Part shown: in pieces, positions 7,451 to 46,577 of the stretch
Layout: every line of letters begins with the position of its first letter
Position numbering within the stretch: the stretch's first letter is position 1
Assembly: GCA_039812885.1 (NCBI GenBank)
Contig: JBDIBI010000023.1
Coordinates: forward strand, 19,395 to 83,394
Source: Blastocatellia bacterium
Lineage (GTDB): Bacteria > Acidobacteriota > Blastocatellia > Chloracidobacteriales > JADJPF01
Direction of reading: 5' to 3'
Length of the DNA stretch: 64,000 nt
Translations under genes and position numbers: made by a program
Notes under the pieces: generated by a model
Database searches by the model: none
The model's input: the letters and a program-made list of their open reading frames with translations, nothing else
Told to the model about the DNA's origin: nothing

Positions 7451-7667
7451 GCAAGTAAGTTTTATATACAAGGTTTTATTCAGTTAATAATTTTGAAAGC
7501 AACAAAATGTTATTTGGGAAAATATGGACTCTGTTACATGGCATGAGCTATTATTGCTTAATCAGTTTCCAGAATGTATTTAAGGTTTCAATTAAGCTGA
7601 AAGAAATCGCTCAACTCAGCTTTATTTTTAAGTTTTTGTAAGAAAAATATAGTATGTTAAGGAGTAT

Positions 7668-8393
7668 ATGATTGTGAAAGATACCAGAGTAATTTCTCAC
7701 TATTTTTATAGTCTGTTATTTACTATTGCAATGGTTCTATTTATAAGTTTACCAGCAAAAGCTGATGATCAAATTGTTACTGATCCAGTGCTTAATACTG
7801 CTCTAAATCAAATAGAGAAGCTATTTCCTACAATAATTCAGCAAGAGCCTAGCTTAACAATAGGTGCAGTACCAGAGATTGATTTAGCTGGGAGCAAAGG
7901 TTCATTGAGCTTTTCTTTTGAGCAAGATAATGGAAGCTTTGCAATTAATTTTGATAGCTTAAAATTTTCTCCTACTAATCCAATTAGTGCTAATAAATTT
8001 AACATTACCTTAACTGCTAAAAATATTACATTAGCTGGTTCTGCCACTATTATGGTTATGGCTAATGGTCAGCAATACACATTGCAATGCCAAGATAGTC
8101 AGTTTGTTATTGGCCCAATCTCTTTTACCGCAGAGGCTGAAATTACAAAAGAAGACATCAATGTAGATAATCCAAAACTAGATTTTGATCCTGCTAACTT
8201 AATGATTGATATGCCTTGTTTAATGCAATCTGTTGCTGGTCGTGATGGTAAAGCCATTCCAATGGATGTTCTTAAAAAGCTCCAAAGTGCAATAAAATCA
8301 TCTGCTAGTAAACGTAAATCATCTGTATCCAAAGCTACACGTATGAGTTTTATGTTATTAAGTTCAGCAATTACTTTTCGTGGTGCTAATTAA
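7668..8393 (+). CDS. hypothetical secreted/anchored protein between the two A2M genes
   Basis: 241-aa ORF with a strong AAGGAG RBS 5 nt upstream of the ATG. The N-terminal hydrophobic segment ends in PAKADD and the C-terminal tail is basic and Ser-rich. I recognise no domain. Confidence 0.6.
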   Translation: MIVKDTRVISHYFYSLLFTIAMVLFISLPAKADDQIVTDPVLNTALNQIEKLFPTIIQQEPSLTIGAVPEIDLAGSKGSLSFSFEQDNGSFAINFDSLKFSPTNPISANKFNITLTAKNITLAGSATIMVMANGQQYTLQCQDSQFVIGPISFTAEAEITKEDINVDNPKLDFDPANLMIDMPCLMQSVAGRDGKAIPMDVLKKLQSAIKSSASKRKSSVSKATRMSFMLLSSAITFRGAN

Positions 8394-8421
8394 CTAAATA
8401 ATTTCTAAAATTTTTTTCAGG

Positions 8422-8456
8422 ATGGCAGCCTTTTCAATTGGCTGCCATTATCTTTT
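8422..8456 (+). terminator. putative intrinsic terminator after the 241-aa gene
   Basis: Stem ATGGCAGCC (8422-8430) pairs with GGCTGCCAT (8440-8448) across a 9-nt loop, followed by TTATCTTTT. Confidence 0.5.
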
Positions 8457-8630
8457 AGCCACTTTTTAGATCTTAGATTGAAACATTTAATCTAGCGAAT
8501 TTTACAATAAACTCTTCTTTTTCTAAGGAACATTATTGGCAGTTGTGCGACTATAGGTTAAGCGCTAGAAAACTAGTGCATTTATCTAATTTTAAAAGAC
8601 TTCCAAAAGTTCTAAAAATAGGTGGAATTT

Positions 8631-11600
8631 ATGAGAAAAGCTGGAAAAAGTACGTTTGCTATTTTTGCTCTAGTCTCGATGGTTGCAAGTATTGCGGGTG
8701 TTTGGCTTTATTTTCACCCGGAACAAGTGAAAAGCCTAAAGAAGGCTATTGCAAAAAATTTTACAGTTTCTAAAAGCAAAAAAGGTTTGCAGTTTCGCTT
8801 GAGTGAAGGTGAAATGGAAGTTCCAACAAATGTCCCTATCGCTAAAGCAACAAAACTCTCAGATAGTGAAGCCGAAAAAGTGTTAAGTAGGCTAGAACCA
8901 CTAAAAGCTGATGAAGAAGACAAACAAGATTTTGCCTTAAGAGAAAAATCTCTTCCACCTCCTAAGACAGGAGAGGTAATAACAACAAAATTTCCTCCTG
9001 ACCAAAATATCAAGGCTGAAGAAGTAGCAAAAGGCCCTTTACAGGTGTTGCGCTATTCTCCTAAGGATGATGTACCAATAGCTCCTAATGTAAGCATTAC
9101 ATTTTCACAGCCAATGGTTGCATTAAGTTCTCAGGAAGAAGCAAGCAAAACTGTTCCTGCAAAAATTAGCCCTGAAGTAGCAGGACATTGGCGATGGTTA
9201 GGCACAAAAACATTAGTCTTTGAGCCTAAAGATAAACGCTTGCCAATGTCTACTGAATACACTGTAGAAGTTCCAGCAGGGACTAAATCTGTTATAGGTC
9301 AAAGTTTAGCTTCTGCTGTAACTTGGAAGTTTAGAACTCCTACTTTGACTCTAAAAAAATATTTTCCAACGGAAAATTCTGTTAATACTAATCCATTGAT
9401 TTATTTAGAGTTTGACCAAGCTATAGACAAAAATCTTTTATTAAATAGTCTTTCTTTAATAGGATATAACGAAAATGACAAGAACTATAAGCTTAGGCTT
9501 GCAACAGAAAGTGAAATCCAAGAAGAAGTAGATAAAGATATAAATTTTAAAATTCTACTCAATGAAGCTAAAGATAAATATTGGCTAGCTGTAAAAGTTG
9601 ATAACACTGTGTTAGGTAATATTGAAGAACCTTTACCTAAGGACAGTAACTTTGGTGTAATTGTAAACATTGGTGCTTCAGGGGAAGGAGCACTTAAAAC
9701 AACTAGTAAACAAGAGTTTTCCTTTAAGACTTATAGTCCACTAAGAGTGACTTGGCAATCTTGCAAGGATTATGAATGCCGACCTGTAGACTATTTGCAA
9801 TTCAGTCTAAATAATCAACTTAGACCAAATTCTTTGGATATTTCTAAAGCAACAATAGAACCTAAAATACCAGGAATGACTATGATAGTTTCTGGTACTG
9901 TTGTAACAATTAGAGGTAAGTTGAAGGGAAGAATAACTTATAAGCTAAAGCTTGAAAAAGAATTTATTAAAGATACTTTCGGTCAATATCTTGAAAAAAC
10001 TCAAGAAATTAACTTCCCAATATCAGCAGCAAAAAAACAACTCACTTCAATAGGTGGTGAATTAATAGCACTAGATCCATTTGCTCCTGCTAAATTGCCA
10101 GTTTTTAGCACAAATCACAATGAACTTAAAGTAACTATTTATTCTATTTCTGCCGAAGAATGGAAAAATTTTAGTAGAATTAAAGAGGAAATTGCTCAAG
10201 CCTACAATAACCCAACTGCTTATCAAAGACCTGTGGGAACCCTTTTATATTCAAAAGTGATAACACCTGCAAATAAACCTGATGAGCAAGTGGAAACAGA
10301 TATAGACCTAAGTGCAGCATTCCAAAATGGAAGAGGCCAAGCTTTTGTTTTTATTGAACCTACAACTCAACCTAAAAATTATTGGGAACGAGAATACATA
10401 AGAAAATGGGTTCAATATACTCAAATAGGTTTGGATGCAGCTGTAGACAATGAAGAAATGCTAGTTTGGGCTAACTCTCTAAAAACAGGTAAGCCTTTGG
10501 CTGGTGTAGAAGTTTCCTTAAAAAACTCAACTGCTGTTACTGGTGCAGATGGACTTGCTCACCTCAAGCTTGAAAATGCTGCTCCAAAAGATGTGCCTGT
10601 TTTGATTGCAAAAAGTGGTAATGATACAGCTATTTTACCTCAGTCATCTTATGGTTATTATAGTACCACTTGGGCAAAAGCTAACACCTCAGATACGTTA
10701 TCTTGGTATGTAGTTGATGATAGAAAGACTTACAAGCCAGGTGAAAAAGTAACAATAAAAGGATGGGTAAGAGTTAGCGAAAATAAAAAAGGTGGAGATA
10801 TAAAACTTGCAGGTCAAATAAAAACAGTGAGTTACACACTTAATGATAGTCAAGGCAACAAAATATCCACAGGAACATTACAAGTTAATCCGCTAGGTGG
10901 TTTTAATGGAGAACTTGCTTTGCCTGGTACTATGAATTTGGGTAATGCTTATTTAACATTGGAAGCTTTGCCAAAGGCATATGAAAATCAAACATACTCA
11001 CATACTTTTCAGGTACAAGAATTTAGACGACCTGAATTTGAAGTTTCAACAAAAGCTGATTCAAATGCTTATTTGATAGGTGAGTATGCAAATGTAACCG
11101 TATCAGCTAATTACTATGCTGGAGGAACCTTAAACAATGCTGATGTTAATTGGCAAGTTAGTTCTTCTCCAACTACTTACACTCCTCCAAATCGTAGTGA
11201 ATACATTTTTGGCAAATGGACTCCTTGGTGGGGAAGTTTTGATTATGAAGGTTATAGTCGTAGAGGACGCTATAGTAGTTACACAACAAGCGAAGATAGT
11301 GAATATAATTCAGAGCGTTTTGCAGGAAAAACTAGCCCAACAGGAACACATAACCTAAGAATAGATTTTGATGCTGTTAATCCTATAACTCCAAGCAGCA
11401 TTAATGTTCAAGCTTCAGTAAGTGATGTTAATAGACAAACTTGGACATCAACTTCTACTTTGCTAGTACATCCATCAAGTCTTTATGTAGGGCTAAAGAG
11501 TGAAAAAACTTTTGTTGGACAAAATGAACCTTTCATTCTTAAATCAATAGTATGTGATATAGATGGAAAACTTATTCCTAACACTTCCATAAATTTTAAG

Positions 11601-14600
11601 TTAGTCAGACTTGACTATGAATATGACAGTCAAGGCAGATACAAGAGCAAAGAAGTTGATCCACAAACTCAAACAATAACATCAAAAGATGATGCAGTAG
11701 AAGTTAGGTTTGTTCCTAAAGAAGGAGGCTCTTACAAACTTACAGCAACAGTAGTTGACCAAAAAGGACGTAAAAATCAAACAGAGTTAACTCTTTGGGT
11801 TACTGGTGGTAAAGTGTTACCAAGCAGAGATTTAACACAAGAAAAAATTCAATTAATTCCTGACAAGAAAGAATATGCTGTTGGTCAAACTGCTCAAATC
11901 ATGCTTCAAGCTCCTTTCTATCCAGCAGAAGGACTCTTAACCTTGCGCCGCTTAGGCATTGTTAAGACCGAGCGATTTACTGTTGATTCAGCTACTTACA
12001 CAATCAAAGTTCCTATTGAAGAAAGCTATTTACCTAATGTTGAACTTCATGTTGATTTAGTGGGTGAGTCAGAAAGAAATCCAGATTCTAGTAGCCCAGG
12101 TTCTCAACTGTTAAAACGGCCAGCCTTTGCAGTAGGGCAGTTGAATTTATCAATTCCACCAGTTTCACGTAGTTTAACGGTAGAAGCAACACCTAGAGAA
12201 AAAGCCATTGAGCCAGCAGGAGAAACAACTATAGACTTAAAGCTTACAGATGCTTCAAAACGAGCTGTTGCAAATGCTGAAGTAGCTTTGTTTGTTGTAG
12301 ATGAGGCTATTTTAGCTCTTTCTAACTATCAAATGAGTAATCCGTTAAGTGTTTTTTATGCTTCTCGGCCAGCATCAGTATCAGACCATCATTTAAGAAG
12401 TTCTGTTGTACTAGCTAATCCTGAAGATATAGAAGCACAAGAGGAACTTGCTAGAAATAAAGAGGCAGGAAAACCTAAACCAATACCTTCAGCTGATAAA
12501 CTTGCTGAAATGGATGATGTGCTTGGAGGTGTGGAAGGTGGCGTAGCTGGTGGTGCAATGAACCGAGTTGCTGCTGCTCCTGCTGCTGAACCTCCTATGG
12601 CACCAATGGAAGCTAAAAAAGCTGAAAGAGCAGATGTAGCTAATGCAGTTCCAGCTAGGTCTTTAAAGGCTTCAAAACCTCCTGCATCCAATTCTCCTAT
12701 AAAAGTTAGAGAAAACTTTAATGCCTTGGCAGTGTTTGAAGCAGCATTATCAACAGACAGCAATGGACATGCAGAGGTAAAAGTAAAACTTCCAGATAGC
12801 TTAACCAAATACAGAATAATGGCAATAGCAGTAGCAGGTGAAAACCGCTTTGGTTCAGGAGAATCAAGCATTACAGCGCGTATGCCATTGATGGTTAGAC
12901 CATCAGCACCACGTTTTCTAAACTTTGGAGATAAGTTTGAATTTCCAGTAGTAGTGCAAAATCAGACAAATAAACCAATGAGTGTAGATGTAGCAATGCG
13001 TGCTACAAATGCAACTTTGACAGAGGGGTTAGGTCGTCGAGTAGATGTTCCAGCAAATGAACGGGTAGAGGTTCGTTTTCCTGTTTCTGCTGAAATGGCA
13101 GGTAAAGCTAGATTCCAAGTAGGAGTAGTGTCAGGCAAATGGAGCGATGCAGCTCAAGTTAGTTTACCTGTTTGGACTCCAGCCACTACAGAAGCTTTTG
13201 CTACATATGGGACATTTGAAAGTAATGCCATAATTCAACCAGTTAAAGCTCCTGCTGATACATATAAACAGTTTGGAGGTTTAGAGGTATCTACTTCATC
13301 AACACAACTTCAAGAGTTAACAGATGCAGTACTTTACATAGTGTCTTATCCTTATGAGTGTTCTGAGCAAATTTCTTCTAGAATCCTTGCAATTGCAGCA
13401 TTGAAAGATGTTTTGTCAGCATTTAAGGCAAAAGGTTTACCTAGTGAGGAAGAAATAAATGCAAGAGTTGCAAAAGACCTAGATAAGCTTAAAAACATGC
13501 AAGGCTATGACGGAGGGTTTGGTTTCTGGAGGCCAAATGATACAAATCCATTTGTGACAATTCACGTAGCACACGCACTACAACGAGCTAAACTAAAAGG
13601 CTATAACATTCCTCAAGATATGTTAGACCGTGTTCATGAATACTTAAGGAACATAGAATCACATATTAATGGCTACTCACCAGAAACCACAATGTCAGTT
13701 ATTGCCTATTCACTTTACGTAAGAAATTTAATGGGTGATAAAGATGTTGCCAAAGCTAAGAGTATTCTCAATTCAGTTTCACTAGATAAAACACCAATGG
13801 AAACAATAGGTTGGTTATGGCCTGTGTTTACAGGGGATTCAAGCTCAACCAAGGAATTAGAAGCTATTAGAAAGTTTGTTAACAATAGAGCCACTGAAAC
13901 TGCTGCAACTGCTCATTTTGTAACAAATTATGCTGAATCAAACTACTTGTTATTAGCTTCTAATTTTAGAACAGATGCAATACTTCTAGATGCTTTAATA
14001 GGGGATCAACCTAATAGCGATTTAATACCTAAGCTAGTTAGAGGGCTTCTAGATCATAGAACAGCAGGAAGATGGGAAAGCACTCAAGAAAATGCTTATG
14101 TATTGCTAGCACTTGACCGATATTTTAGAACATATGAGAAAGTAACACCTAACTTTATAGCTAGAGTTTGGTTAGGCGATAATTATGCTGGAGAACATTC
14201 ATTTGTTGGGCGAACTACTGAAAAGTACCAGGTAAATATCCCAATGAGTTATTTAACAAATAGTGAGCAAAACCTTGTAATAAGCAAAGATGGAGCAGGT
14301 AGAATTTATTATCGAGCAGCTATGAATTATGCACCAAAGAGTTTGGATTTACCTGCGGCAGATTATGGTTTTGTTGTTGAAAGGAAATATGAAGCAGTAG
14401 ACAATCCTTCAGATGTAACAAAGACTTCAGATGGAACATGGCGAATCAAAGCAGGTGCTAGAGTTAGAGTTAAATTAAGTATGGTTGCACAATCAATGCG
14501 CTATCATGTTGCACTAGTAGATCCACTAGCAGCAGGACTAGAAGCATTAAATCCAGCACTTGCTAATACAGGTGCAGTGCCTCCAGAGAATAACCTTAGT

Positions 14601-14852
14601 CAGCAAAATAATGCTTCTAGATATTGGTGGTGGAGTGGATTTTGGTATCAACATGAAAACTTTAGAGATGAACGAATAGAAGCATTTACTACATTACTTT
14701 TGGATGGTGTTTACTCTTATAGCTATGTAGCAAGAGCTACTACAATAGGGAGCTTTGTTGTTGCTCCTACAAAGGCTGAAGAGATGTATCATCCTGAAAC
14801 TTTTGGTAGAAGCAAGACTGATAAGGTTGTTGTTTATGAGGCAGGAAAATAA
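8631..14852 (+). CDS. alpha-2-macroglobulin family protein, thioester-containing, membrane-anchored (copy B)
   Basis: The ORF track starts at a GTG (8622). The ATG at 8631 is homologous to the copy A start (MRKAGK) and has an AGGTGG RBS. The same YPYECSEQ motif is present (Cys codon 13359-13361). The C-terminal ~715 residues match copy A except for 3 substitutions and the last residues. Confidence 0.85.
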   Translation: MRKAGKSTFAIFALVSMVASIAGVWLYFHPEQVKSLKKAIAKNFTVSKSKKGLQFRLSEGEMEVPTNVPIAKATKLSDSEAEKVLSRLEPLKADEEDKQDFALREKSLPPPKTGEVITTKFPPDQNIKAEEVAKGPLQVLRYSPKDDVPIAPNVSITFSQPMVALSSQEEASKTVPAKISPEVAGHWRWLGTKTLVFEPKDKRLPMSTEYTVEVPAGTKSVIGQSLASAVTWKFRTPTLTLKKYFPTENSVNTNPLIYLEFDQAIDKNLLLNSLSLIGYNENDKNYKLRLATESEIQEEVDKDINFKILLNEAKDKYWLAVKVDNTVLGNIEEPLPKDSNFGVIVNIGASGEGALKTTSKQEFSFKTYSPLRVTWQSCKDYECRPVDYLQFSLNNQLRPNSLDISKATIEPKIPGMTMIVSGTVVTIRGKLKGRITYKLKLEKEFIKDTFGQYLEKTQEINFPISAAKKQLTSIGGELIALDPFAPAKLPVFSTNHNELKVTIYSISAEEWKNFSRIKEEIAQAYNNPTAYQRPVGTLLYSKVITPANKPDEQVETDIDLSAAFQNGRGQAFVFIEPTTQPKNYWEREYIRKWVQYTQIGLDAAVDNEEMLVWANSLKTGKPLAGVEVSLKNSTAVTGADGLAHLKLENAAPKDVPVLIAKSGNDTAILPQSSYGYYSTTWAKANTSDTLSWYVVDDRKTYKPGEKVTIKGWVRVSENKKGGDIKLAGQIKTVSYTLNDSQGNKISTGTLQVNPLGGFNGELALPGTMNLGNAYLTLEALPKAYENQTYSHTFQVQEFRRPEFEVSTKADSNAYLIGEYANVTVSANYYAGGTLNNADVNWQVSSSPTTYTPPNRSEYIFGKWTPWWGSFDYEGYSRRGRYSSYTTSEDSEYNSERFAGKTSPTGTHNLRIDFDAVNPITPSSINVQASVSDVNRQTWTSTSTLLVHPSSLYVGLKSEKTFVGQNEPFILKSIVCDIDGKLIPNTSINFKLVRLDYEYDSQGRYKSKEVDPQTQTITSKDDAVEVRFVPKEGGSYKLTATVVDQKGRKNQTELTLWVTGGKVLPSRDLTQEKIQLIPDKKEYAVGQTAQIMLQAPFYPAEGLLTLRRLGIVKTERFTVDSATYTIKVPIEESYLPNVELHVDLVGESERNPDSSSPGSQLLKRPAFAVGQLNLSIPPVSRSLTVEATPREKAIEPAGETTIDLKLTDASKRAVANAEVALFVVDEAILALSNYQMSNPLSVFYASRPASVSDHHLRSSVVLANPEDIEAQEELARNKEAGKPKPIPSADKLAEMDDVLGGVEGGVAGGAMNRVAAAPAAEPPMAPMEAKKAERADVANAVPARSLKASKPPASNSPIKVRENFNALAVFEAALSTDSNGHAEVKVKLPDSLTKYRIMAIAVAGENRFGSGESSITARMPLMVRPSAPRFLNFGDKFEFPVVVQNQTNKPMSVDVAMRATNATLTEGLGRRVDVPANERVEVRFPVSAEMAGKARFQVGVVSGKWSDAAQVSLPVWTPATTEAFATYGTFESNAIIQPVKAPADTYKQFGGLEVSTSSTQLQELTDAVLYIVSYPYECSEQISSRILAIAALKDVLSAFKAKGLPSEEEINARVAKDLDKLKNMQGYDGGFGFWRPNDTNPFVTIHVAHALQRAKLKGYNIPQDMLDRVHEYLRNIESHINGYSPETTMSVIAYSLYVRNLMGDKDVAKAKSILNSVSLDKTPMETIGWLWPVFTGDSSSTKELEAIRKFVNNRATETAATAHFVTNYAESNYLLLASNFRTDAILLDALIGDQPNSDLIPKLVRGLLDHRTAGRWESTQENAYVLLALDRYFRTYEKVTPNFIARVWLGDNYAGEHSFVGRTTEKYQVNIPMSYLTNSEQNLVISKDGAGRIYYRAAMNYAPKSLDLPAADYGFVVERKYEAVDNPSDVTKTSDGTWRIKAGARVRVKLSMVAQSMRYHVALVDPLAAGLEALNPALANTGAVPPENNLSQQNNASRYWWWSGFWYQHENFRDERIEAFTTLLLDGVYSYSYVARATTIGSFVVAPTKAEEMYHPETFGRSKTDKVVVYEAGK

Positions 14853-20920: not shown

Positions 20921-21116
20921 AATGGTTTGCCCTCTTAAGATTTTTAGGAGTTTCCCAAAGTACGGGGGGGAGTGCGATTATACACACAATCGCCTAATAT
21001 AAGATAGGCCAAAGTTTATGGCAAGTCGCTAAGGCTATGTTCTAAGATAAATTTTGTATTTGTTAATATAACCTAGATAGTCATATTTACGTTATTTATC
21101 TTGCTATTTTGTTTAC

Positions 21117-21224
21117 ATATTAATAACCCCAGGTTACGCTCGTTTATTAATAACCCCAGGTTGCGCTCGTTTATTAATAACCCTAGGTTACGCTCGTTTA
21201 TTAATAACCCCAGGTTGCGCTCGT
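21117..21224 (+). repeat. 4 tandem 27-bp units, consensus TTATTAATAACCCCAGGTTRCGCTCGT (left-arm-only half hairpins)
   Basis: The CCCC cores sit at 21127, 21154, 21181 and 21208, read directly from the sequence. Confidence 0.95.
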
Positions 21225-21245
21225 TACACTCGCTAAAACCTGGGG
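21208..21245 (+). repeat. conserved hairpin, variant 1
   Basis: CCCCAGGTT (21208-21216) pairs with AACCTGGGG (21237-21245). The loop is GCGCTCGTTACACTCGCTAA, followed by CTAATATGGGTTGAGCG. Confidence 0.9.
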
Positions 21246-21313
21246 CTAATATGGGTTGAGCGAATTATAATTTGAACTAATTTAATAAATGAGTTTGTTT
21301 CCAACAGAGTCAT

Positions 21314-21422
21314 TTATTAGTAACTCCCAGGTTGCGCTCGTTTATTAATAACCCCAGGTTACGCTCGTTTATTAATAACCCCAGGTTGCGCTCGTTTATT
21401 AATAACCCCAGGTTGCGCTCGT
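21314..21422 (+). repeat. second block of 4 tandem 27-bp units (first unit 28 bp)
   Basis: Cores sit at 21325, 21352, 21379 and 21406. With the following hairpin and spacer this forms a ~198-bp higher-order repeat of 21117-21313. Confidence 0.95.
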
Positions 21423-21443
21423 TACACTCGCTAAAACCTGGGG
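21406..21443 (+). repeat. conserved hairpin, variant 1 (second copy)
   Basis: CCCCAGGTT (21406-21414) pairs with AACCTGGGG (21435-21443). The sequence is identical to 21208-21245. Confidence 0.9.
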
Positions 21444-21519
21444 CTAATATGGGTTGAGCGAATTATAATTTGAACTAATTCAAATAATTAGATTCGTTTC
21501 CAACAGAGTCATATATTAG

Positions 21520-21645
21520 CCCGGGGTTTTAGCGAAGCGCAACCCCGGGTTCAAGGGGTTTTAGCGAAGCGCAACCCCGGGTTCAAGGGGTTTTAGCGAA
21601 GCGCAACCCTGGGTTCAAGGGGTTTTAGCAAAGCGCAACCCTGGG
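21520..21645 (-). repeat. 4 tandem 32-bp hairpin units (GGGGTTTTAGCGAAGCGCAACCCCGGGTTCAA), family hairpin variant 2 in inverted orientation
   Basis: GGGG starts at 21523, 21555, 21587 and 21619. The first unit pairs CCCGGGGTT (21520-21528) with AACCCCGGG (21541-21549). On the minus strand it continues CTAATATATGAC like the canonical element. Confidence 0.9.
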
Positions 21646-21663
21646 AATGGAGTGCAAGGAAAA

Positions 21664-22806
21664 TCAATGAAAATGAGGCATAACTTCTTTTGCAAACATT
21701 TCCATATTTTTGTTTACTAAATCTTCTGGCATATCTCCAGCATGTGCGCCACCTATGAGTATTCCAGCTTTCATTTCCTCAGTGTATATACTAAGTTTTT
21801 CTATTACTGTAGCAGGGCTTCCAACAATAATATAACCTTGATCAATTAATTCTTGGAAAGTAAGTTTATGGAAAGGTTTAATACCTGAGCCAAGTAATGA
21901 GGCTAAGGATTTTTCTGTTACATAACCTGGTGGAAAGTTAAAATGTTGAGGAACATGCAAGCCTTTATGGAAAAGCCACATAACATGGGGTTCAGCTTCT
22001 TTTCTTGCAATTTCGTCTGTTTCTGCAACAAAGGTTGGTATAGCAAAAGCTAATTGATTGGGTTGGGCTTGATAGCCAAATTTTTCTTCTGCTATTTGTC
22101 TATAAAGCGCATAGGCTTTACGTTGGTAAGTTTGAGGAGAAAAAACCATCATAAATGGATAGCGGTGTTTAGCTGCAAACTCAATAGTTTCAAGACTTCC
22201 AGTGCCAGGGAGCCAAATTGGAGGATGAGGTTTTTGCAAAGGTCGAGGCCAAATATTTACATAGCGATAGTTATAATGTTGTCCTTCAAATGCAAAAGGC
22301 CCGGCTTTAGTCCAAGCTTGAATTATTAAATCATGTGCTTCATAAAAACGATCACGAGAATGAGCAGGATTAATATTATAAGAAAAATATTCCATTCCTG
22401 TTCCACGAACAAAGCCAGAAATGATTCTGCCTCCGCTAATTACATCTAGCATAGCTATTTCTTCTGCTACTCTTAGTGGATCATCATGCAAAGGTAAGGC
22501 GTTACCAACAATTGCAATTTTGGCCTTTTGAATTCTATGTACAAGCATTGCTGCAATAATATTAGGTGAAGGCATAGTTCCATATGCAGTTTGATGATGT
22601 TCATTAACGCATACTCCATCCCAGCCTAATTCTGCTGCTTTAACTAGCTCGTCTATATAGCGGTTATAAAGCTTATGACCTTTTTCTGGATCATATAAAC
22701 TATTAGGTAATGTAATCCAAGTTGAATCATATTGTTTATGAAAATCTGGTGGCAAGTAAGGATATGGCATTAAGTGAAAGTAATAAAACTCCATCTTTTT
22801 TGTCAT
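21664..22806 (-). CDS. LLM-class (luciferase-like) flavin-dependent oxidoreductase
   Basis: 380 aa. WDGVCVNEHHQTAYGTMPSP and RVAEEIAMLDVISGGR are typical of luciferase-like monooxygenases. Confidence 0.75.
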   Translation of the reverse strand: MTKKMEFYYFHLMPYPYLPPDFHKQYDSTWITLPNSLYDPEKGHKLYNRYIDELVKAAELGWDGVCVNEHHQTAYGTMPSPNIIAAMLVHRIQKAKIAIVGNALPLHDDPLRVAEEIAMLDVISGGRIISGFVRGTGMEYFSYNINPAHSRDRFYEAHDLIIQAWTKAGPFAFEGQHYNYRYVNIWPRPLQKPHPPIWLPGTGSLETIEFAAKHRYPFMMVFSPQTYQRKAYALYRQIAEEKFGYQAQPNQLAFAIPTFVAETDEIARKEAEPHVMWLFHKGLHVPQHFNFPPGYVTEKSLASLLGSGIKPFHKLTFQELIDQGYIIVGSPATVIEKLSIYTEEMKAGILIGGAHAGDMPEDLVNKNMEMFAKEVMPHFH

Positions 22807-29213: not shown

Positions 29214-30317
29214 ATGGGCAGATTTATGCAAAAAATAAAAAATAAACGTTTTTTCTTACTTATTATTACAGTCCTCTTTAGTTTTAATTTAACACCTTCT
29301 CAATCTGTTAGAAATATTTTAAGACCTTCTAGTTTATTAACTCAACAATCACCTCAGCAATCAAATACTCAATCAAAACAAGAAACACAAAATTCTCAAA
29401 ATCCACAACCCTCTCAAAATGAAGAAGAAGATCAATCAGTTGATCCTATCAAAATAGGTGGGGAAATAGTGTTACTTAATGTATTAGTAACAGATATAAA
29501 AAACCGCTATGTGGAAAGTATAACAAAGGGAGAATTTGAGCTATTTGAAGATGGAAAAAAACAAGAAATAAGTTTTTTCTCTAGACAAAATGAACCTATA
29601 AGTATTTGTATTTTAATAGATGCTTCTACTTCTATGATAGATAACGGAAAATTGATAGAAGCACTTAAAGCTGCTAAAGCATTGATTGCTAATAGCAACC
29701 CAAAAGATGAAGTATGTTTAATGAAGTTTGATGATCGTGTTACTTTAATTCAAGATTTTACTACAGATGCAAATTTACTAAATGAGCAAACTCAACGTAT
29801 TAAGCCTTTTGGCGGTACGGCAATGTATGATGCATTAACAAGAGCAATGACTCATACTAATAAGAACTCTAAAAAACTACGTCAAGCTATTGTTATGATT
29901 ACTGATGGTATAGACCAACATAGCCGCAAAAAGTTTACAGATGTTATTCCAATTGCCCAATTAACAGGTATTCCATGTTATGTAATAGGTGTTTATACTC
30001 CTGAAGAAAAACAAGCTTTTGCTACAGGTCAGCAAAAACTTAAACTTGATAATGGAGAATATGTTGATAACCCAGAGAATATATTACGTAATTTAGCAGA
30101 AGAAACAGCAGGAAGAGCTTTCTTTCCAAATAGTGAAAGAGAACTTGTTCCAATAGCTCTACAGATAGCTAGTGAGTTAAGAAGCGGATATGCTGTAGGT
30201 TATTACCCACCAAGTAATTCTTTAGATGGAAAATATCACTCAATCTCTGTAGTATCAAAATCCAAGAAATATACTGTTAGAGCACGCCGCGGTTATATTT
30301 CCAAACTACCAGAATAA
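29214..30317 (+). CDS. VWA-domain protein (acidobacterial VWFA-related type)
   Basis: Signal peptide, Q-rich linker and MIDAS motif DASTSM, plus GGTAMYDAL and MITDGID. The layout resembles the TIGR03436 family. The start may be the ATG at 29226. Confidence 0.7.
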   Translation: MGRFMQKIKNKRFFLLIITVLFSFNLTPSQSVRNILRPSSLLTQQSPQQSNTQSKQETQNSQNPQPSQNEEEDQSVDPIKIGGEIVLLNVLVTDIKNRYVESITKGEFELFEDGKKQEISFFSRQNEPISICILIDASTSMIDNGKLIEALKAAKALIANSNPKDEVCLMKFDDRVTLIQDFTTDANLLNEQTQRIKPFGGTAMYDALTRAMTHTNKNSKKLRQAIVMITDGIDQHSRKKFTDVIPIAQLTGIPCYVIGVYTPEEKQAFATGQQKLKLDNGEYVDNPENILRNLAEETAGRAFFPNSERELVPIALQIASELRSGYAVGYYPPSNSLDGKYHSISVVSKSKKYTVRARRGYISKLPE

Positions 30318-30331
30318 ATAGTTAAAAGAAC

Positions 30332-30371
30332 AAATCTATAAACTGTTGCTTTTGCAACAGTTTATAGATTT
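30332..30371. terminator. bidirectional hairpin terminator between convergent genes
   Basis: An 18-bp perfect palindrome, AAATCTATAAACTGTTGC tttt GCAACAGTTTATAGATTT. Confidence 0.5.
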
Positions 30372-30408
30372 AGAATTAAAAATAGAAGTTAGTTTCTAGA
30401 AGTTAATT

Positions 30409-30753
30409 CTATTTCCAATCATCTTGGGCTTTTGTCCAAACAAATTCGCTTACTGCCTCTATATCTTCAATTTCTAGACTATCTTTATATGAAGGCATAA
30501 CACCTTTGCCTCCTTTAACAATTTTCTTTATATGTGTAGAACTTACATAACCATTCTTTTTAAGATCAGCCAATTTTAATGTTTTAGATGGTTCAATAGT
30601 GTTATCTCCTCCTTTATGGCAATTTACACATTGACTTTGAAATACTTTATTGCCTTTTTTTAGCTGAGCTTCTTTATCATCAATATGACCACTAGTTTCA
30701 GATAAACAGATAAACAGAATTAGAAAAGAAAAAAATATGGCTTTTTGCATCAT
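30409..30753 (-). CDS. class I c-type cytochrome (c6/c553-like), secreted
   Basis: CVNCH motif, GVMPSY and a C-terminal WTKAQDDWK. It is a paralogue of 27738-28109. Confidence 0.75.
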   Translation of the reverse strand: MMQKAIFFSFLILFICLSETSGHIDDKEAQLKKGNKVFQSQCVNCHKGGDNTIEPSKTLKLADLKKNGYVSSTHIKKIVKGGKGVMPSYKDSLEIEDIEAVSEFVWTKAQDDWK

Positions 30754-30814
30754 GCTTTAATTCCCTTTGCATAAAAAATATTTCTAAACCATCTCAAAAG
30801 ATGGAGTTATAAAT

Positions 30815-32230
30815 TTAGTTCAAACTTAATATCCAACTAGAAAGATCTTCATAATCTTTTTCTTTTAAATCTGTAAATGCAGGCATTACATTGTTTAACC
30901 CAAAATCAGAAGGTTTTTTTATTAGATTGATTAGGTCATTATGAGTTCGTTTTGGTTTATTATTTAAGTTATGTAAATTAGGGCCAATTACTCCTTCTCC
31001 AGAATTTCCATGACAACCAGCACATTTTTCAATGTAAATAGCTGGAGATTTTGTTGTTTGGGCTATTGTTTGAGCATTTACAGATTGTGCAACAAAAGGT
31101 TTATGTAAAAATTCTTTAGCTTCTTCTGATTGTTGAGCAAGGCGTTTGCTAACAAGAGGATCATTTTTATCATCTAACTTGGCAATAACCATTAAGCCTA
31201 TAATTGCAAGTAGTAAAAGAGATGCTATAACACTGCAAATAGGCCGTTTAAAGGGATTACGCTCTTGCTTTCTATCAAAAAATGGTAAAACACCAAGCAC
31301 TGTAAAGATAAGACCAGGAATAATCATTGTTGGAAGTAAAACAAGACGACCATTAAAATACTTAAGTAGCTGGAAAAGTGGAAGAAAATACCACTCTGGT
31401 CTAGCTATATAGTTAACATCAGCCGGATTTGCTTGTGGTTCAAGCGAAGCAGGCATATACAAACTTATAGATAGTAGTACGATAAATATTAGTGATGAAA
31501 AAACTGCATTAAGGAAAAATTGTTTGGGGTAAAAAGTTTCAGTTTTTTCTTCTAAATTCTTTGAAGTATATGCTCCAGCAGGTTTTGCATACCAGAAAAG
31601 TAATATATGAACTATTGAAGATATTCCTAAAATTAATGGTAGAACTACTACATGAATAACAAAAAACCTTGAAAGTGTAAGAGTTGAAAGGTTACTTCCC
31701 CCTAAAACAATTCTTTCAATAGTTGAGCCTATAATAGGTATAGTTGACATTATGCTAACACCTACTTTAGTTCCGAAATAAGCTTTTTGATCCCAAGGTA
31801 GCAAATAGCCAGTAAAAGAAAACCCAAGTACTAATAAAAACAATAGGATACCAACTAACCAAAGTAATTCACGTTTCTTTTTATAAGCTCCCCATAGAAA
31901 TGTTTGTAAAAAATGCAAGACTACTAAAATCACCATTGCACTTGAGCCATAATGGTGAATACCTCTTATTATTGCACCACAAAGCACTTCTTTTTGAATA
32001 TAGGCTACACTAGTATGAGCATGATCAGAAGTAGGTACATAATAAAGCAACAATAGAATGCCTGTAAATAACTGTAAAACAAAGACAAACAGTAATGCAC
32101 TTCCAAAAACATAAGAAAACTTAGCACCGCCTGGAATTTCTTCCTCTTGTACTCTAGGTAAAAGGCTTTTTATTCCTGTCCTATCATCTATCCAATTTCC
32201 TGTTGCTACTAAATGACTATGTATAGACAT
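30815..32230 (-). CDS. cytochrome b fused to a subunit-IV-like region and a C-terminal monohaem cytochrome c
   Basis: 471 aa and multi-TM, with conserved His pairs in helices (HHYGSS, VVLHFL, FFVIHV), the PEWYFLPLF motif and a C-terminal CAGCH domain. Confidence 0.8.
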   Translation of the reverse strand: MSIHSHLVATGNWIDDRTGIKSLLPRVQEEEIPGGAKFSYVFGSALLFVFVLQLFTGILLLLYYVPTSDHAHTSVAYIQKEVLCGAIIRGIHHYGSSAMVILVVLHFLQTFLWGAYKKKRELLWLVGILLFLLVLGFSFTGYLLPWDQKAYFGTKVGVSIMSTIPIIGSTIERIVLGGSNLSTLTLSRFFVIHVVVLPLILGISSIVHILLFWYAKPAGAYTSKNLEEKTETFYPKQFFLNAVFSSLIFIVLLSISLYMPASLEPQANPADVNYIARPEWYFLPLFQLLKYFNGRLVLLPTMIIPGLIFTVLGVLPFFDRKQERNPFKRPICSVIASLLLLAIIGLMVIAKLDDKNDPLVSKRLAQQSEEAKEFLHKPFVAQSVNAQTIAQTTKSPAIYIEKCAGCHGNSGEGVIGPNLHNLNNKPKRTHNDLINLIKKPSDFGLNNVMPAFTDLKEKDYEDLSSWILSLN

Positions 32231-32244
32231 AAAAAATCCATAGA

Positions 32245-32766
32245 CTAAGTTAATGGAACCTTTTGTTCAAGGCCATGGGTGAAGGATTCATACTTGATTT
32301 CAAGATTATTGTTATTAACTCGATGGTCTAATGTATCTAGGCTTCTAGGTGTAGGGCCTGATATTTTTGCTCCATCATCTTGCCATTTACTCATATGACA
32401 AAGACAAGCAAAGCAATCTCCTTGACGTGTAACTGTACAGCCTTCATGCGGACAAACAGCAGAATAAACATCTATTTGTTGGCCTTTACGAGCAATCCAA
32501 ACAGCTTGGCAACTGCTAGATTCTTGCCAACCATTTTGCTCAGTAATATTTACTGTAAATTGTGTAAAACCTTCTGGAATTTGCTCTAGTTTACCTATTG
32601 TTTGCCAGGATAAATCTTTTTTACTCTTGCCAAAAAAAGCAGGAAATGTTGCATAAATACCAGATACTACTCCCATTACAAGTCCAATAAAACCTAGAAA
32701 AATAGCTCCAAGTATACCAAGAAAGCTACGTCTTGAATTTTGTGGTTCTGAGTTTGTTGTTGACAT
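32245..32766 (-). CDS. Rieske 2Fe-2S subunit of the cytochrome bc complex
   Basis: Twin-arginine-like SRRSFLG, plus CPHEGC and CLCH cluster-binding boxes. I prefer the ATG at 32766, which has an AAGGAAG RBS. Confidence 0.8.
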   Translation of the reverse strand: MSTTNSEPQNSRRSFLGILGAIFLGFIGLVMGVVSGIYATFPAFFGKSKKDLSWQTIGKLEQIPEGFTQFTVNITEQNGWQESSSCQAVWIARKGQQIDVYSAVCPHEGCTVTRQGDCFACLCHMSKWQDDGAKISGPTPRSLDTLDHRVNNNNLEIKYESFTHGLEQKVPLT

Positions 32767-32839
32767 CTCTTCCTTTTTAATAGCTAGTAGTCGCAACTAC
32801 TAGCTATTATGACATTGTAATCTAGTATAAGATTATAAA

Positions 32840-33157
32840 TTAAGGTTTATCACTAGATGATTCAGCCTCATTATGAATTACAAGAGGTTGAACTTGTTTT
32901 TTCATAAAGGCTAAAACAGAACTTGCTTCATTTTTTGTAAGATGGGCACGAACTCTCATATGTAACATAATTGTTTGCCAGCCTGCACTTGAGCGTTGAG
33001 TTGGTTCTGGCGCTCTGTGACAACGAACACAAACACTTCCATAGATTTTTGCACCATCAGTTTCTTGTTTTTCTGTTTTACCATTTGCTACTTGCCCAAA
33101 AATTAGACTAGCTAGCATGGTAAATAATATAAGAGAAATTTTAAGGTTTTTCTTCAT
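32840..33157 (-). CDS. small secreted monohaem c-type cytochrome
   Basis: Signal peptide and a single CVRCH motif. I prefer the ATG at 33157, which has an AAGGAA RBS. Confidence 0.55.
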   Translation of the reverse strand: MKKNLKISLILFTMLASLIFGQVANGKTEKQETDGAKIYGSVCVRCHRAPEPTQRSSAGWQTIMLHMRVRAHLTKNEASSVLAFMKKQVQPLVIHNEAESSSDKP

Positions 33158-33193
33158 TGTATTATTCCTTATAAGCACTGTATTTTGAATATG

Positions 33194-34654
33194 TTAGAAA
33201 GCATATGCTAGTTGTAAATGGGCTCCATTTGTATAAGGGCCAGCAACAAGCCGTTCACGGGTATATTCCATTTTCCAAACAACTGATGGAGTAAGCCAAT
33301 AATCTAGACCTATTGAATGTTGACGTTCATGAACTCCAGCTTGCTCTTGTGCGCTAAAGCGATATATTGGCTCTAAATTCTTGAGAAATGGTTTATCAAT
33401 ATTCTTAAAAGCATAGGACATTTCAGCATACCACCCAGATCTTCTATCTAAACCAAAAGGAGTTTCTCGTTGTAAATTGATATATTCTCCACGAAAATCT
33501 AAGGATTTCTTTTGATACTCAAAATCTACTCCAGTAGCTCTTAAATTATGTGTGCCGGTCTTGTCCCATTTACCTTTTAGTACTGAGGCTCCAATTCTTA
33601 ATTGACCAATTTTGGAATCATAGGAAAAAGGTCTAATACCAACTCTTGTTATAAGAGTTTTGTTTCCATTGATATCTGGGAAATTATCTGCTGTGCCAGC
33701 TCCAATTTCATCAGATTCATAAGACTGTCCATTTGAAATAGCTATAGAGTAATCAAGCACTTGTCCTCGATCACCAAAAGGAATAGCGCTTCTTACCTGT
33801 AATCCAACATCGGAGAAATTAAGTAAGCCTCCTTCATCTCCTTCACGTAGCGGTAAAGGATTGCTTACAAGCTTGTTAATCCAAGGCATATGACGATGCT
33901 CAACAAAATCTCCAAATGGAGTTAAATACTTGCCAAAAATTACAGTAGCATATTTATGAGCAATCCAATCAATTTGAGCTGTTTCAAGGTTAGTTTCTAC
34001 AGTACTTTGACCAGTTACATCATCGCGTGAGAGTTTAATTTCTAATTCACCCTCAAAAAGAAGATTAGGACGTATTCCAAAGAGGAATATAGGGTTAAAT
34101 GAAGCTAAAAAGCTGTTGCCTTGAGGACTTGCGTCATAACGACCTGTACCATAACCGCCAAATATAAAATTATGAGTTCCATGTGGTAATTCAGATTGAA
34201 GAGCTGTTTCAATGTTTTTAGTTCGTTCAGCTAGACTATCAATTTCTCGTCTAGTTTCTTCTCTTTCTGAAGATTTGTTAGGTGCTATAGTAGTAGTGAC
34301 TACAGTGTTATTAGCAGCATTTTCAACAGGTTGTGATGCTTTAACTTCTGTTGGTTGTGCTGTTAAAGCAGTTTTTTCAGTAAGTAGTTTTTCCATCTGC
34401 TTTACTTTTTCATCTAGGTATTTTAGCTTGTTAACTTGATCTTCTAACTCAGACACTCTTTTTTTAAGAATTTCAACTGTTTCTGCATCACTGTTTTTAG
34501 CAGGTTTATCTGATGTTGTTGGGTCAGAATAAGCTACTTTTTCTACAATTTTTTTATTAACAATAGGAGTCAGATTTTGACCGTAAGTCGTTTTTATTGT
34601 TAGTACAAAAAATAAAACTATACTAACAAATATGATGAATTTGTTTTTAGACAT
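33194..34654 (-). CDS. outer-membrane porin-like beta-barrel protein with an N-terminal coiled coil
   Basis: Signal peptide, a coiled-coil stretch (VSELEDQVNKLKYLDEKVKQMEKLL), alternating beta-strand patterns and a C-terminal aromatic ending LQLAYAF. Confidence 0.45.
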   Translation of the reverse strand: MSKNKFIIFVSIVLFFVLTIKTTYGQNLTPIVNKKIVEKVAYSDPTTSDKPAKNSDAETVEILKKRVSELEDQVNKLKYLDEKVKQMEKLLTEKTALTAQPTEVKASQPVENAANNTVVTTTIAPNKSSEREETRREIDSLAERTKNIETALQSELPHGTHNFIFGGYGTGRYDASPQGNSFLASFNPIFLFGIRPNLLFEGELEIKLSRDDVTGQSTVETNLETAQIDWIAHKYATVIFGKYLTPFGDFVEHRHMPWINKLVSNPLPLREGDEGGLLNFSDVGLQVRSAIPFGDRGQVLDYSIAISNGQSYESDEIGAGTADNFPDINGNKTLITRVGIRPFSYDSKIGQLRIGASVLKGKWDKTGTHNLRATGVDFEYQKKSLDFRGEYINLQRETPFGLDRRSGWYAEMSYAFKNIDKPFLKNLEPIYRFSAQEQAGVHERQHSIGLDYWLTPSVVWKMEYTRERLVAGPYTNGAHLQLAYAF

Positions 34655-34868
34655 TGTTCCTCCTAAAAATATATAAGCCCAATTTTATGAATAAGTTTAG
34701 TATTAGTTACTAACTGTTTGATAGCTATTCGCTTACGTATATCTAGCTGTTAAAGCGCTTTTCTATTTTTAGCCAAAACTTTGAAAGGGGGGAGTTTTAG
34801 CTTTTAGTCGTTAGCAAATTTGTATTCTTATTAAACTATATTTTTTTGTCCTGTAACGTAGTGAGATG

Positions 34869-34911
34869 GTTAATAAACTGTAAAGAATTGTTATTTACTG
34901 TTAATAAACTG
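34869..34911. promoter_or_regulatory. candidate operator: direct repeats GTTAATAAACTG (34869, 34900) plus the related GTTATTTACTG (34890)
   Basis: Read from the sequence. The repeats lie in the 458-bp gap between the two-component genes and the porin/cytochrome cluster. Confidence 0.2.
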
Positions 34912-35112
34912 GTAAAGTTATTGAAAAATACCTATAAAAAAGTAACTAATAAAATAAGTAATAAATAAAAAGAACTTCTTAGATAAAACTAGTAAGTCCA
35001 AATTCTACAATTAATAACCTTGCTAAAAAGCTTTCAATCCCTAACAATTTAATTTTAACCAATGGTAGATGAATAGAAGATTAACGCGGTTTAGTTTTGA
35101 CGGGTTATAAGG

Positions 35113-36507
35113 TTATAAGGGTAAGGACACTATAAATTTACTTCCTTTATTGAGAAGACTTTCAACTTCTATAGAACCTTGATGTGCTTCTACAATGCAT
35201 TTTGCTATTGCTAGACCTAATCCGCTTCCACCCTCAGAGCGAGAACGGGCTTTGTCTACTCTATAAAAGCGCTCAAAGATTTTTTTTAGTGAATCTTCTG
35301 CAATTCCAACACCATTATCTGAAACAACTATTTTCACTTTTTTAGCTTCGTTAATTAGCTCTAATGTTACAGTTCCTTCATTAAGAGTATATTTAATTGC
35401 ATTATCTAGAAGGTTTAGTATTAACCTTTTAAGCATTTCTTCATCACCCTTAAAAGGAGTTTCAGATAATGGGCTAAGTATTAAATTAATATGTTTACGA
35501 CTAGCCAATACTTTAGAGGTTTTATAGCAACTTTCTATAAGATCATTAAGGTAGAACAGTTCTACTTTAGGTTTATATTGACCAGCATCAGCCGAAGCTA
35601 AGGCCAGTAAATCATTTACCATTTTAGATAAACGAACTGTTTCATCATTGATTATTGATAAGGTTTCTTGGTACTCAACAGGCTCTCTAGCTTGGAGTAG
35701 AGCTACATCAATTTCTCCTTTTATTATTGTTAGTGGAGTGCGCAACTCATGAGAGGCATCTGCTATAAATCGTTTCATATTTTCAAATGAATTGTTAAGT
35801 CTTAAGAGAAGTTCATTAAATGTTTCTGCTAGTTGGCCAAGTTCATCATTACGGTTTTTGACTGTAAGTCTTTCATAAAGATTATTTGCACTAATATGTT
35901 TGACTTGGTTTGACATAGCAACAACAGGCGATAAGCTTTTTTTAGCTAAAAGAAATCCTCCTAGTGCAGCTATTATTAAGGTAGAAGGTAGGGTAATGGC
36001 AAAGATTTCTTTTATAGGTTGAATTTGTTCTCTAGCACTTTCAAGAGGTTCTGCCAAAATAACAAAAAATTCTTTTCCTTCTGCTTCAACTAACAATGAA
36101 GCAATTCTTACTTCTTCTTTGCCAGCATATCTAGTAGACAAAACTACTTGCCCATTTGATTTTTTTGCAGAATCAGTAATTTCTTTAACTAATACATCAT
36201 CAAGGTTTTCTGTAAAATTTGAAGCTAAGAGATTTGTACCTGAAAATATTCCTATGGGTGAGTTTAAAGACATTTCACTTAAAGCCTCTAGAGCCGCTGC
36301 TCGATTATTTCCAGGATTTTCTTTAAGCTCACTTAACATTGTTGCAATAGCATGATGAGAGTCTTTAACTAGATAGTTATCAAGTCGATCATGTATATCT
36401 TTTTTTATAAGAAAGTAGGTAAAAGCACAAAATCCTGCTAATAAAATTCCAAAAAAGAATAAATACCACAAAGTTAAACGGAAACGAACACTACTAAACA
36501 AGCTCAT
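35113..36507 (-). CDS. sensor histidine kinase (TM-HAMP-HisKA-HATPase)
   Basis: H-box ADASHELRTPL, N-box LLDNAIKYT, G-boxes DNGVGI and GSGLGLAI, and two TM segments. The ATG at 36507 overlaps the regulator stop by 14 nt. Confidence 0.85.
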   Translation of the reverse strand: MSLFSSVRFRLTLWYLFFFGILLAGFCAFTYFLIKKDIHDRLDNYLVKDSHHAIATMLSELKENPGNNRAAALEALSEMSLNSPIGIFSGTNLLASNFTENLDDVLVKEITDSAKKSNGQVVLSTRYAGKEEVRIASLLVEAEGKEFFVILAEPLESAREQIQPIKEIFAITLPSTLIIAALGGFLLAKKSLSPVVAMSNQVKHISANNLYERLTVKNRNDELGQLAETFNELLLRLNNSFENMKRFIADASHELRTPLTIIKGEIDVALLQAREPVEYQETLSIINDETVRLSKMVNDLLALASADAGQYKPKVELFYLNDLIESCYKTSKVLASRKHINLILSPLSETPFKGDEEMLKRLILNLLDNAIKYTLNEGTVTLELINEAKKVKIVVSDNGVGIAEDSLKKIFERFYRVDKARSRSEGGSGLGLAIAKCIVEAHQGSIEVESLLNKGSKFIVSLPL

Positions 36508-37183: not shown

Positions 37184-37375
37184 GCTTATAAATACCAATT
37201 TTTCTGTGTAGAAATAAAAATTATCTTAACATTCTGCTTGGCTTAAAGATAACTTGAACTTACCCTCATTTTCTATATTTTGAAGCTTTTACCTGCCTCC
37301 TGAATTGACTTAGGTAACTTCCTTTTGCTATGCTCTTTTATCCTCCACACAAATAAAAATTTTCAAGGTATATTT

Positions 37376-41701: not shown

Positions 41702-41971
41702 ATATTGTTGTTCTATCTGCGGGCTTTTCTATTAGGTTTATTTATTATCGTCTTTATTACTGCCATAATATTATTTCTGTGGTTAATATTCGCTTAGTAT
41801 TGTACTTTATTATATTAACAGATTTTATTTTACTGATATTTTGGGTTAAAGCCTAAGAGAAACCTGCCTGTACACTCGTTAAAATGCGGTAGCTTGCGGC
41901 AGGTTTAAGATTTGTTAGTTTGGAATAAAAGTTTCTTCTAGTGATATAACTCGAGTAATATAACTAGGAAA

Positions 41972-46425: not shown

Positions 46426-46442
46426 TCTCAATCCTTTCGCAA

Positions 46443-46481: not shown

Positions 46482-46577
46482 CTAATATATATATCCTAAA
46501 ATTTGAGTTTGGCTAAATCCCGAAAACTTAATATTTTATTAGCTAAACTCTTGAATTTAATATGCTTATAATAAGTC

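Follow-up and report, generated by a model that had tools for sequence, protein, structure and literature searches.

Tagged hairpins with compensated stem changes as probable units of a REP-like dispersed repeat family in a Blastocatellia-like acidobacterium

Repetitive extragenic palindromes (REPs) are palindromes of 20-50 nt with a conserved tag that occur as single units, as head-head, tail-tail or tandem dimers, and in clusters that are reiterated together with flanking DNA (PMC8266576, PMC3733652). TnpA-REP recognises them as folded single-stranded DNA, the determinants being a bulge in the stem and the tag (PMC8266576). In REPINs, compensatory changes in the stem are common, and it has been argued that selection acts on the ability of the element to replicate (PMC3116915). 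Here we analyse a group of small tagged hairpins in a 64,000-nucleotide stretch (the window) of contig JBDIBI010000023.1 from a Blastocatellia bacterium, where an initial annotation had proposed that the hairpins at 21208-21549 exchange their stem bases in compensating pairs and that the structure itself is under selection. The paired stem changes are real, but the element is of an ordinary kind: the hairpins probably belong to a dispersed family of short palindromic repeats that is specific to its lineage and of the REP/REPIN/BIME (bacterial interspersed mosaic element) kind, in an uncultured Blastocatellia-like acidobacterium.

The window contains five such hairpins (Table 1), distributed over two intergenic repeat clusters, with hairpins at 21208-21549 in cluster A and at 46443-46951 in cluster B. 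Read in a common orientation, each consists of a 9-nt left arm, GCG, a loop, CGC, TAA, a 9-nt right arm and the tail CTAATAT. The hairpins measure 30-39 nt, and the unit as a whole, that is the hairpin plus its CTAATAT tag and often a following GGGTTGA, comes to ~46-60 nt; from the other strand the tag reads ATATTAG and is placed before the hairpin, with TTAG adjoining the stem. Complementarity of the 9-bp outer arms is perfect in all five hairpins. None of the five departs from the others in the inner GCG/CGC stem, in the 3' bulge of three nucleotides (TAA) or in the 7-nt tail, and the loops vary by substitution as well as by insertion and deletion. The outer stem exists in three versions, V1 to V3, and all differences between these versions are fully compensated. 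The three variable stem pairs adjoin one another, and V3 has the V1 arms in exchanged places: since CCTGGGG and CCCCAGG are reverse complements, the V3 left arm equals the V1 right arm. Note that a single 198-bp tandem duplication accounts for both V1a and V1b, so that the five hairpins represent four distinct sequences with three stem versions.

Several computations place the pattern far outside what chance would produce. The pattern CGCTAAAACCNNNGGCTAATAT, which joins the right arm to the tail, is found five times in the window where 0.01 matches would be expected. A covariance model built from the five copies recovers them with E-values of 1e-16 to 1e-23, and its scan of the window yields no complete copy beyond these five. 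Folding energies lie between -11 and -14 kcal/mol per hairpin on both strands, with z scores of -3.8 to -6. When the five copies are aligned, 100% of paired cells are complementary and three pairs are changed on both sides, giving a covariation score that two of 500 shuffles match; if the register is slid, the number of pairs changed on both sides falls to zero and the score to at most 0.097, as against 0.306 in the true register. On recheck, the hairpin sequences and coordinates of the initial annotation were all correct, and its central observation, that the stem arms change in pairs around a constant loop core, inner GCG/CGC stem and tail, is borne out both by the pairing of all five hairpins and by the covariation test. 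The span it had assigned, 21208-21549, does hold hairpins but is only part of a larger repeat cluster.

How many copies does the genome carry, and where do they lie? Copy number was estimated from assembled contigs of public metagenome runs that align to the clusters, taking contig depth, an assembler average, as the measure. In run X1 the unique flanks have a depth of ~11.6, the right arm with tail and GGGTTG ~4400, the V2 core ~1680 and V3-type copies 200-300. The corresponding depths are ~10.3 (unique flanks) and ~3200 (right arm, tail and GGGTTG) in run X2, and ~6 (unique flanks) and ~840 (V2 core) in run X11. Scaled to the depth of the organism's unique flanks in the respective run, the right arm and tail reach ~380 in X1 and ~310 in X2, with X6 of the same order, and the V2 core gives nearly the same ratio, ~140, in X1 and X11. 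These ratios therefore point to roughly 100-400 copies per genome, a rough estimate because it rests on averaged depths. The GGGTTG core after the tail is as deep as the tail itself and each stem version is multi-copy in its own right; the array of 27-mers, described below, is single-copy by depth.

The copies are dispersed. Many of the V3 type sit inside 2-12 kb contigs with unrelated flanks, and their boundaries are sharp, falling at 46441/46443 (the foot of the stem) and at 46488/46490 (the end of the tail). Joints between contigs reveal many further tail-to-tail doublets with short spacers that differ from one another, and the arrangements seen comprise solitary units, tail-to-tail inverted doublets and tandem arrays. 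Contig pieces aligned to the clusters carry 1-7 differences each, and indels among the other genomic copies are confined to the loop. One contig with the left arm CCTGCGGTT drops out at 100% likeness, which is compatible with, though no proof of, a matching change in the right arm. V1-type copies are often preceded, in consensuses of loose ends, by a T-rich stretch ending in TGAT, which is absent before the copies in the window. The short-read contigs examined for this organism at clusters A and B all stop at the cluster.

Both window loci have an empty counterpart in the closest relative (92% and 88% identity for the two proteins compared), which has kept both gene pairs and lacks the repeats. 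At cluster A, the spacer between a monooxygenase gene and a glucosidase gene measures 148 bp in the relative (L080/L081) as against 743 bp in the window; aligned to one another, the two spacers have in common the promoter-proximal 124 bp (20921-21044), and the repeat block is missing from the relative. At cluster B, the spacer between an S46 peptidase gene and a metallo-beta-lactamase-fold gene measures 36 bp in the relative (L087) as against 605 bp in the window, with the stop codon and the ribosome-binding region on its flanks conserved. Neither BLAST nor the covariance model finds an element copy in ~28 kb of the closest relative or in ~70 kb from relatives at 80-89% identity; these relatives carry ordinary terminator hairpins instead. 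As an aside, the empty-site spacer of L087 (9279-9314, 36 bp) has AAATTAGCTCAAC in common with the junction of the 81-nt units in cluster B, but this 13-nt match is probably due to chance and not a footprint because the same 13-mer is present in a coding region of L080.

Collections were scanned with exact patterns over 185,579 species-representative genomes, JGI metagenome contigs and IMG/VR. The right-arm-plus-tail pattern has no match in the species-representative genomes and none in the IMG/VR viral contigs, and its three matches in JGI metagenome contigs are chance matches without a hairpin. A loop-anchored pattern produces at least 72 matches in the species-representative genomes, all due to chance among the matches listed, and 12 in viral contigs, likewise all due to chance; in the plasmid collection the element is without a match. 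Two window proteins have their nearest named homologues in metagenome-assembled genomes of Blastocatellia/Acidobacteriota, and the window sequence itself occurs in activated-sludge runs and in a few metagenome runs from mats or hot springs. On these sequence comparisons, the burst of REP-like repeats is a recent event at the level of the species.

What could have spread so abundant and so regularly organised a family into sites that are empty in a close relative? The best-supported mechanism is probably that a Y1 HUH transposase disseminates the unit in the form of a single-stranded DNA hairpin. A transposase of this kind (RAYT-like or IS200/IS605-like), encoded elsewhere, would recognise the folded single-stranded hairpin with its bulge and tag and, acting in trans, would cut or join it. 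Spread would be limited to copies with a paired stem; if copies do need a paired stem to spread, changes in the stem would survive only when compensated, and sub-families with different perfect stems would result. After dissemination, local expansion would proceed by tandem duplication of whole or half units along with flanking DNA. As a secondary effect, hairpins of clusters that lie within a transcription unit, which both clusters do, are probably carried on the mRNA as well. We favour the Y1 mechanism because the ATATTAG tag and the TAA bulge are invariant and are counterparts of the features that TnpA-REP recognises. The unit is a stem-loop-forming imperfect palindrome within the 20-50 nt range of REPs, it is dispersed in high copy with diverse flanks, both window loci are intergenic, and it is organised in inverted doublets that fold into long hairpins and in tandem clusters.

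A number of points weigh against this reading. The invariant tag differs in sequence from the GTAG or CGTC of described REPs, being ATATTAG with TTAG at the stem, although three of these four positions equal those of GTAG. Genomes with REPs have a gene for a RAYT (a Y1 HUH transposase), typically with the same REPs on its flanks. Neither a Y1 nor any other transposase was found among the proteins of the 64-kb window, and the RAYT-like genes of four Acidobacteria species are flanked by long terminal inverted repeats, not by REPs (PMC3733652). Classical BIMEs do not feature direct half-hairpin arrays such as the 27-mers, no excision or insertion event was seen within the species, and the argument from selection has three stem versions as its basis. 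Instead of a RAYT, an undescribed partner might spread or use this hairpin repeat with its particular tag and bulge; candidates in Acidobacteriota would be another HUH enzyme, a recombinase or a protein that binds or processes RNA. We assign this idea quite a low probability. Were it true, the half-hairpin arrays would record an unusual form of copying, for example repeated partial strand transfer at the loop.

A more general concern is whether perfect pairing testifies to selection at all. It had been asserted that covariation of this sort is not expected from a neutral palindrome, but this is too strong, given that template switching during replication makes multi-base compensatory changes in hairpins in one event (PMC8794818). 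Imagine that the structure were unselected and that template switching or arm-to-arm conversion copied one arm from the other, so that the three stem versions were no more than amplified lineages. Such a process creates and maintains perfect stems with multi-base compensatory changes and an intact loop (PMC8794818, PMC7202029), and in our hairpins the changed positions are indeed three adjacent positions of the stem, with V3 arms that are exchanged V1 arms. However, homogenisation of the arms should remove the asymmetric TAA bulge and the unequal loop flanks, when in fact both are invariant, as is the unpaired tail. Exchange of both arms would moreover require at least two events and an unpaired intermediate, and template switching explains neither dispersal nor copy number. 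Orphan arms and tail-less array units do decay: in orphan half-units, four of the 84 positions that would belong to a stem are substituted and an indel affects one unit, compared to no unpaired position in 120 for tailed hairpins (one-sided p = 0.03, keeping in mind that the units are not fully independent), and distal units of the 32-nt array in cluster A show uncompensated changes (C>T at 21609 and 21641, G>A at 21630). We consider it unlikely that copying between arms accounts for the family. Together, the invariant bulge, inner stem and tail, the restriction of indels to the loop and the decay of orphan and tail-less units suggest constraint beyond simple palindromy, so that the proposed selection on structure stands in part, tempered by the small number of stem versions and by the adjacency of the variable pairs. 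Among the roles that had been put forward for a functional hairpin, a transposase or recombinase recognition structure fits well because the hairpin forms the centre of a repeat that is dispersed in many copies, and it remains the best suggestion; but since selection on REPINs is thought to favour replication of the element, the function may be mobility and not a host role, and selection may act on the spread of the element itself.

Selection for pairing could also operate on RNA. If the units were stem-loops selected by the host, located between cistrons or at 3' ends and serving to stabilise, process or attenuate mRNAs of the adjacent minus-strand genes, selection on the RNA would keep the stems paired without any need for mobility. 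The clusters start 5-18 nt past stop codons, between co-directional genes, and read-through transcription is likely because the gene pairs are so close in the relative (36 bp for B, 148 bp for A). REPs have been reported to influence mRNA stability and termination (PMC3733652). In addition, contigs from two RNA libraries, X29 and X38 (a root metatranscriptome and another RNA library), carry related, partly diverged copies (matching 21381-21546 and 46868-47031), and one RNA-library contig has V1 arms with a short loop. These copies suggest occurrence of the family, or of a sister family, in a second habitat and possible transcription, but the evidence is at contig level and very shallow, and the libraries possibly include DNA. 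Other observations argue more directly against a host-selected RNA element: the same gene pairs work without it in close relatives, one transcript includes hairpins of both orientations, near-identical copies with sharp ends number a hundred or more, a terminator-type T tract follows on neither strand, and tailed copies contain none of the G-U pairs expected as intermediates. This, too, is an explanation we think improbable. Least of all do we credit the idea, which seems very remote, that the arrays are a degenerate CRISPR, integron attC sites, repeat-encoded peptides or intrinsic terminators. Parts of the 81-nt units resemble CRISPR-DR40, with 28.6 bits as against a gathering score of 42, and some reading frames stay open in the 27-nt arrays. 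Set against this, the periods of 32 and 81 nt are not multiples of three, small open reading frames overlap real genes or end inside the element, the window proteins include no cas, integrase or cassette genes, and there are neither terminator-like sites nor Rfam matches at gathering score.

Each of these candidates was accordingly set aside. A CRISPR array has unique spacers and cas genes nearby; here the sequence between the CRISPR-like stretches is the same each time, the score for DR40 stays under its threshold and no cas domain occurs in the window. Integron attC sites are imperfect palindromes (R''/L''-L'/R') that bound gene cassettes next to intI; the window has no cassettes or integrase and the units lie back-to-back in intergenic DNA. 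An intrinsic terminator has a GC-rich stem followed by a T tract; neither cluster has a terminator-like site and the hairpin is followed by CTAATAT. Against an element-encoded peptide stand the single-copy depth of the 27-mer array and the shortness of the shared unit.

In keeping with the REP-like reading, the hairpins are embedded in mosaics whose parts are listed in Table 1. Cluster A fills the intergenic region 20921-21663, with repeats at ~21118-21645, between genes for a luciferase-like monooxygenase and a GH63-like glucosidase, both on the minus strand. It runs from a 27-nt array through V1, its tail and a ~60-nt spacer to a second copy of this block, the 198-bp duplication (Tandem Repeats Finder, TRF: period 198, 2.0 copies, 93%), and on to an inverted V2 that heads the 32-nt array. 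The 27-nt half-unit of this cluster consists of TATTAATAA, the V1 left arm and RCGCTCGTT, and the last half-unit of array 1 provides the left arm of V1a. The region 21400-21560, which comprises the V1b/V2 doublet, folds into one long REPIN-like hairpin (-42.7 kcal/mol, z -9.1). Eighteen nucleotides separate the 32-nt array from the stop codon of the gene at 21664-22806. Upstream of the glucosidase gene, 20996-21024 on the minus strand matches a sigma-70-like promoter (TTGCCA, 17 nt, TATATT); the match falls within the part of the spacer conserved in the relative, so that the repeat cluster lies upstream of it without disrupting it.

Cluster B occupies the intergenic region 46432-47036, with repeats at 46443-47031, between the genes for the S46 peptidase and the metallo-beta-lactamase-fold protein, again both on the minus strand. 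Its order is V3 with tail, a ~90-nt spacer, the 81-nt array, an inverted V1c and 27-nt half-units. V3 lies upstream of the gene at 45361-46431, with 11 nt between it and the start codon, the whole 81-nt units are 96% identical to each other, and another 5 nt lie between the half-unit array and the S46 peptidase stop codon (gene at 47037-49124). In both cases the cluster is squeezed in after the stop codon of a minus-strand gene and before the start region of the following one. No promoter-like or terminator-like site lies within either cluster, and Rfam gives no match at gathering score and only chance-level matches below it. The sub-threshold CRISPR-DR40 match covers 46632-46823 on the minus strand and forms part of each 81-nt unit (GTTGAAC...TTTCAAC).

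Table 1. Hairpins and associated repeat features of the window. Arms and loops are given in the common orientation; the loop is the sequence between GCG and CGC.
Feature	Position	Strand	Tail	Arms (left / right)	Loop	Composition and basis
Hairpin V1a	21208-21245	+	21246-21252	CCCCAGGTT / AACCTGGGG	CTCGTTACACT	
Hairpin V1b	21406-21443	+	21444-21450	CCCCAGGTT / AACCTGGGG	CTCGTTACACT	
Hairpin V2	21520-21549	-	21513-21519 (ATATTAG on + strand)	CCCGGGGTT / AACCCCGGG	CTT	
Hairpin V3	46443-46481	+	46482-46488	CCTGGGGTT / AACCCCAGG	CTCGCTAACGCT	
Hairpin V1c	46914-46951	-	46907-46913 (+ strand coordinates)	CCCCAGGTT / AACCTGGGG	CTCGTTTCACT	
Tandem array 1	21118-21225	+				4 half-units of 27 nt; TRF period 27, 4.0 copies, 93% matches
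Post-tail module and spacer (GGGTTGAGCGAAT...)	21253-21312	+				First ~13 nt high-copy, remainder low-copy; depth profile
Tandem array 2	21313-21423	+				27-nt half-units, 4.1 units; within the 198-bp duplication 21117-21519
Tail-to-tail inverted doublet	21404-21551	.				V1b, 62-nt spacer, inverted V2
32-nt array	21520-21645	-				3.8-3.9 units, each a shortened V2 hairpin without tail
81-nt array	46578-46916	.				4.2 units, each with tail, module and degenerate right-arm relic; TRF-type repeat and weak model matches
27-nt half-unit array	46933-47031	-				3.7 units, 100% identical

Elsewhere in the window, the proteins have ordinary chromosomal functions, and a few further features deserve mention. 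A hairpin with a 9-bp stem at 41860-41906, between convergent genes, has in its loop TACACTCGTTAAAA, where 13 of 14 positions agree with the loop and bulge of V1; unscored by the covariance model, it may be a decayed family member or a product of chance. A tandem segmental duplication of ~7.4 kb at 1184-14852 contains two alpha-2-macroglobulin-like genes (2088 and 2076 aa), with some stretches 92-100% identical and others ~70%. In the closest relative, genes for a VWA protein and an amine oxidase are adjacent (L080, 1-2159), and the window (~30300-37300) has ~7 kb extra between them, encoding a cytochrome b/c fusion, a Rieske protein, a 486-aa protein and a histidine kinase/response regulator pair.

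Repeats of the REP kind leave their mark on bacterial genomes: they break assemblies, insert between the genes of operons and can change the fate of mRNAs. The family described here was found in none of the collections searched, its burst took place in a poorly known phylum, and its tag differs from those of the two described super-families. With a complete genome at hand, it would offer a clean system in which to ask which enzyme drives such a burst, and whether selection for mobility or template switching stands behind the perfect stems.

Set beside the systems described so far, the hairpins are most readily compared to the REPs and BIMEs of Enterobacteria and Pseudomonas. Like these, they are imperfect palindromes (38-39 nt) with an unpaired tag at one foot and a conserved irregularity in the stem. 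They number a hundred or more, often directly behind stop codons, and occur as singletons, inverted dimers and tandem clusters that include flanking DNA. They differ in the tag (ATATTAG/TTAG), in the acidobacterial host and in the arrays of direct half-hairpins. As in the modular intergenic repeats BOX (pneumococcal) and NIME/dRS3 of Neisseria, where variable tandem internal modules lie between conserved end modules, the build is modular and the site intergenic, but module structures and sequences are different and the core of those elements is not a tagged, bulged single hairpin. Miniature derivatives of IS200/IS605 elements have distinct hairpins at the left and right ends, with guide and cleavage tetranucleotides, and insert 3' of a fixed target. 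With the ends of IS200/IS605 elements and their miniature derivatives the family shares a sub-terminal hairpin with an unpaired base that could be recognised on single-stranded DNA; unlike in these, there is one type of hairpin only, with no left and right ends around a cargo, the hairpin starts at the junction and no tnpA or tnpB is nearby. The target of ISDra2 is TTGAT, which the ...TTTGAT before many V1-type copies recalls, a likeness that we treat as a lead only.

The parallel to the REPINs of Pseudomonas fluorescens SBW25 is also close: two inverted units and a spacer make one long hairpin, compensatory changes keep it paired, tandem clusters extend over ~700 bp and abundance differs sharply between close relatives (PMC3116915). 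Here, unlike in SBW25, the tags point inward (tail-to-tail), spacers vary widely and solitary units appear to be frequent, at least for the V3 type; excision intermediates of the REPIN type were not observed for this family. Finally, with the GTAG and CGTC super-families (PMC3733652) our repeats share both architecture and organisation, as head-head, tail-tail and tandem dimers and as clusters with flanking DNA, but belong to neither class of tag. Acidobacterial Y1 transposases have been described with long inverted repeats (PMC3733652), and a REP burst in a Blastocatellia-like bacterium would therefore be a new member of the REP/REPIN/BIME kind, set apart by an unusual tag and by its arrays of half-hairpins.

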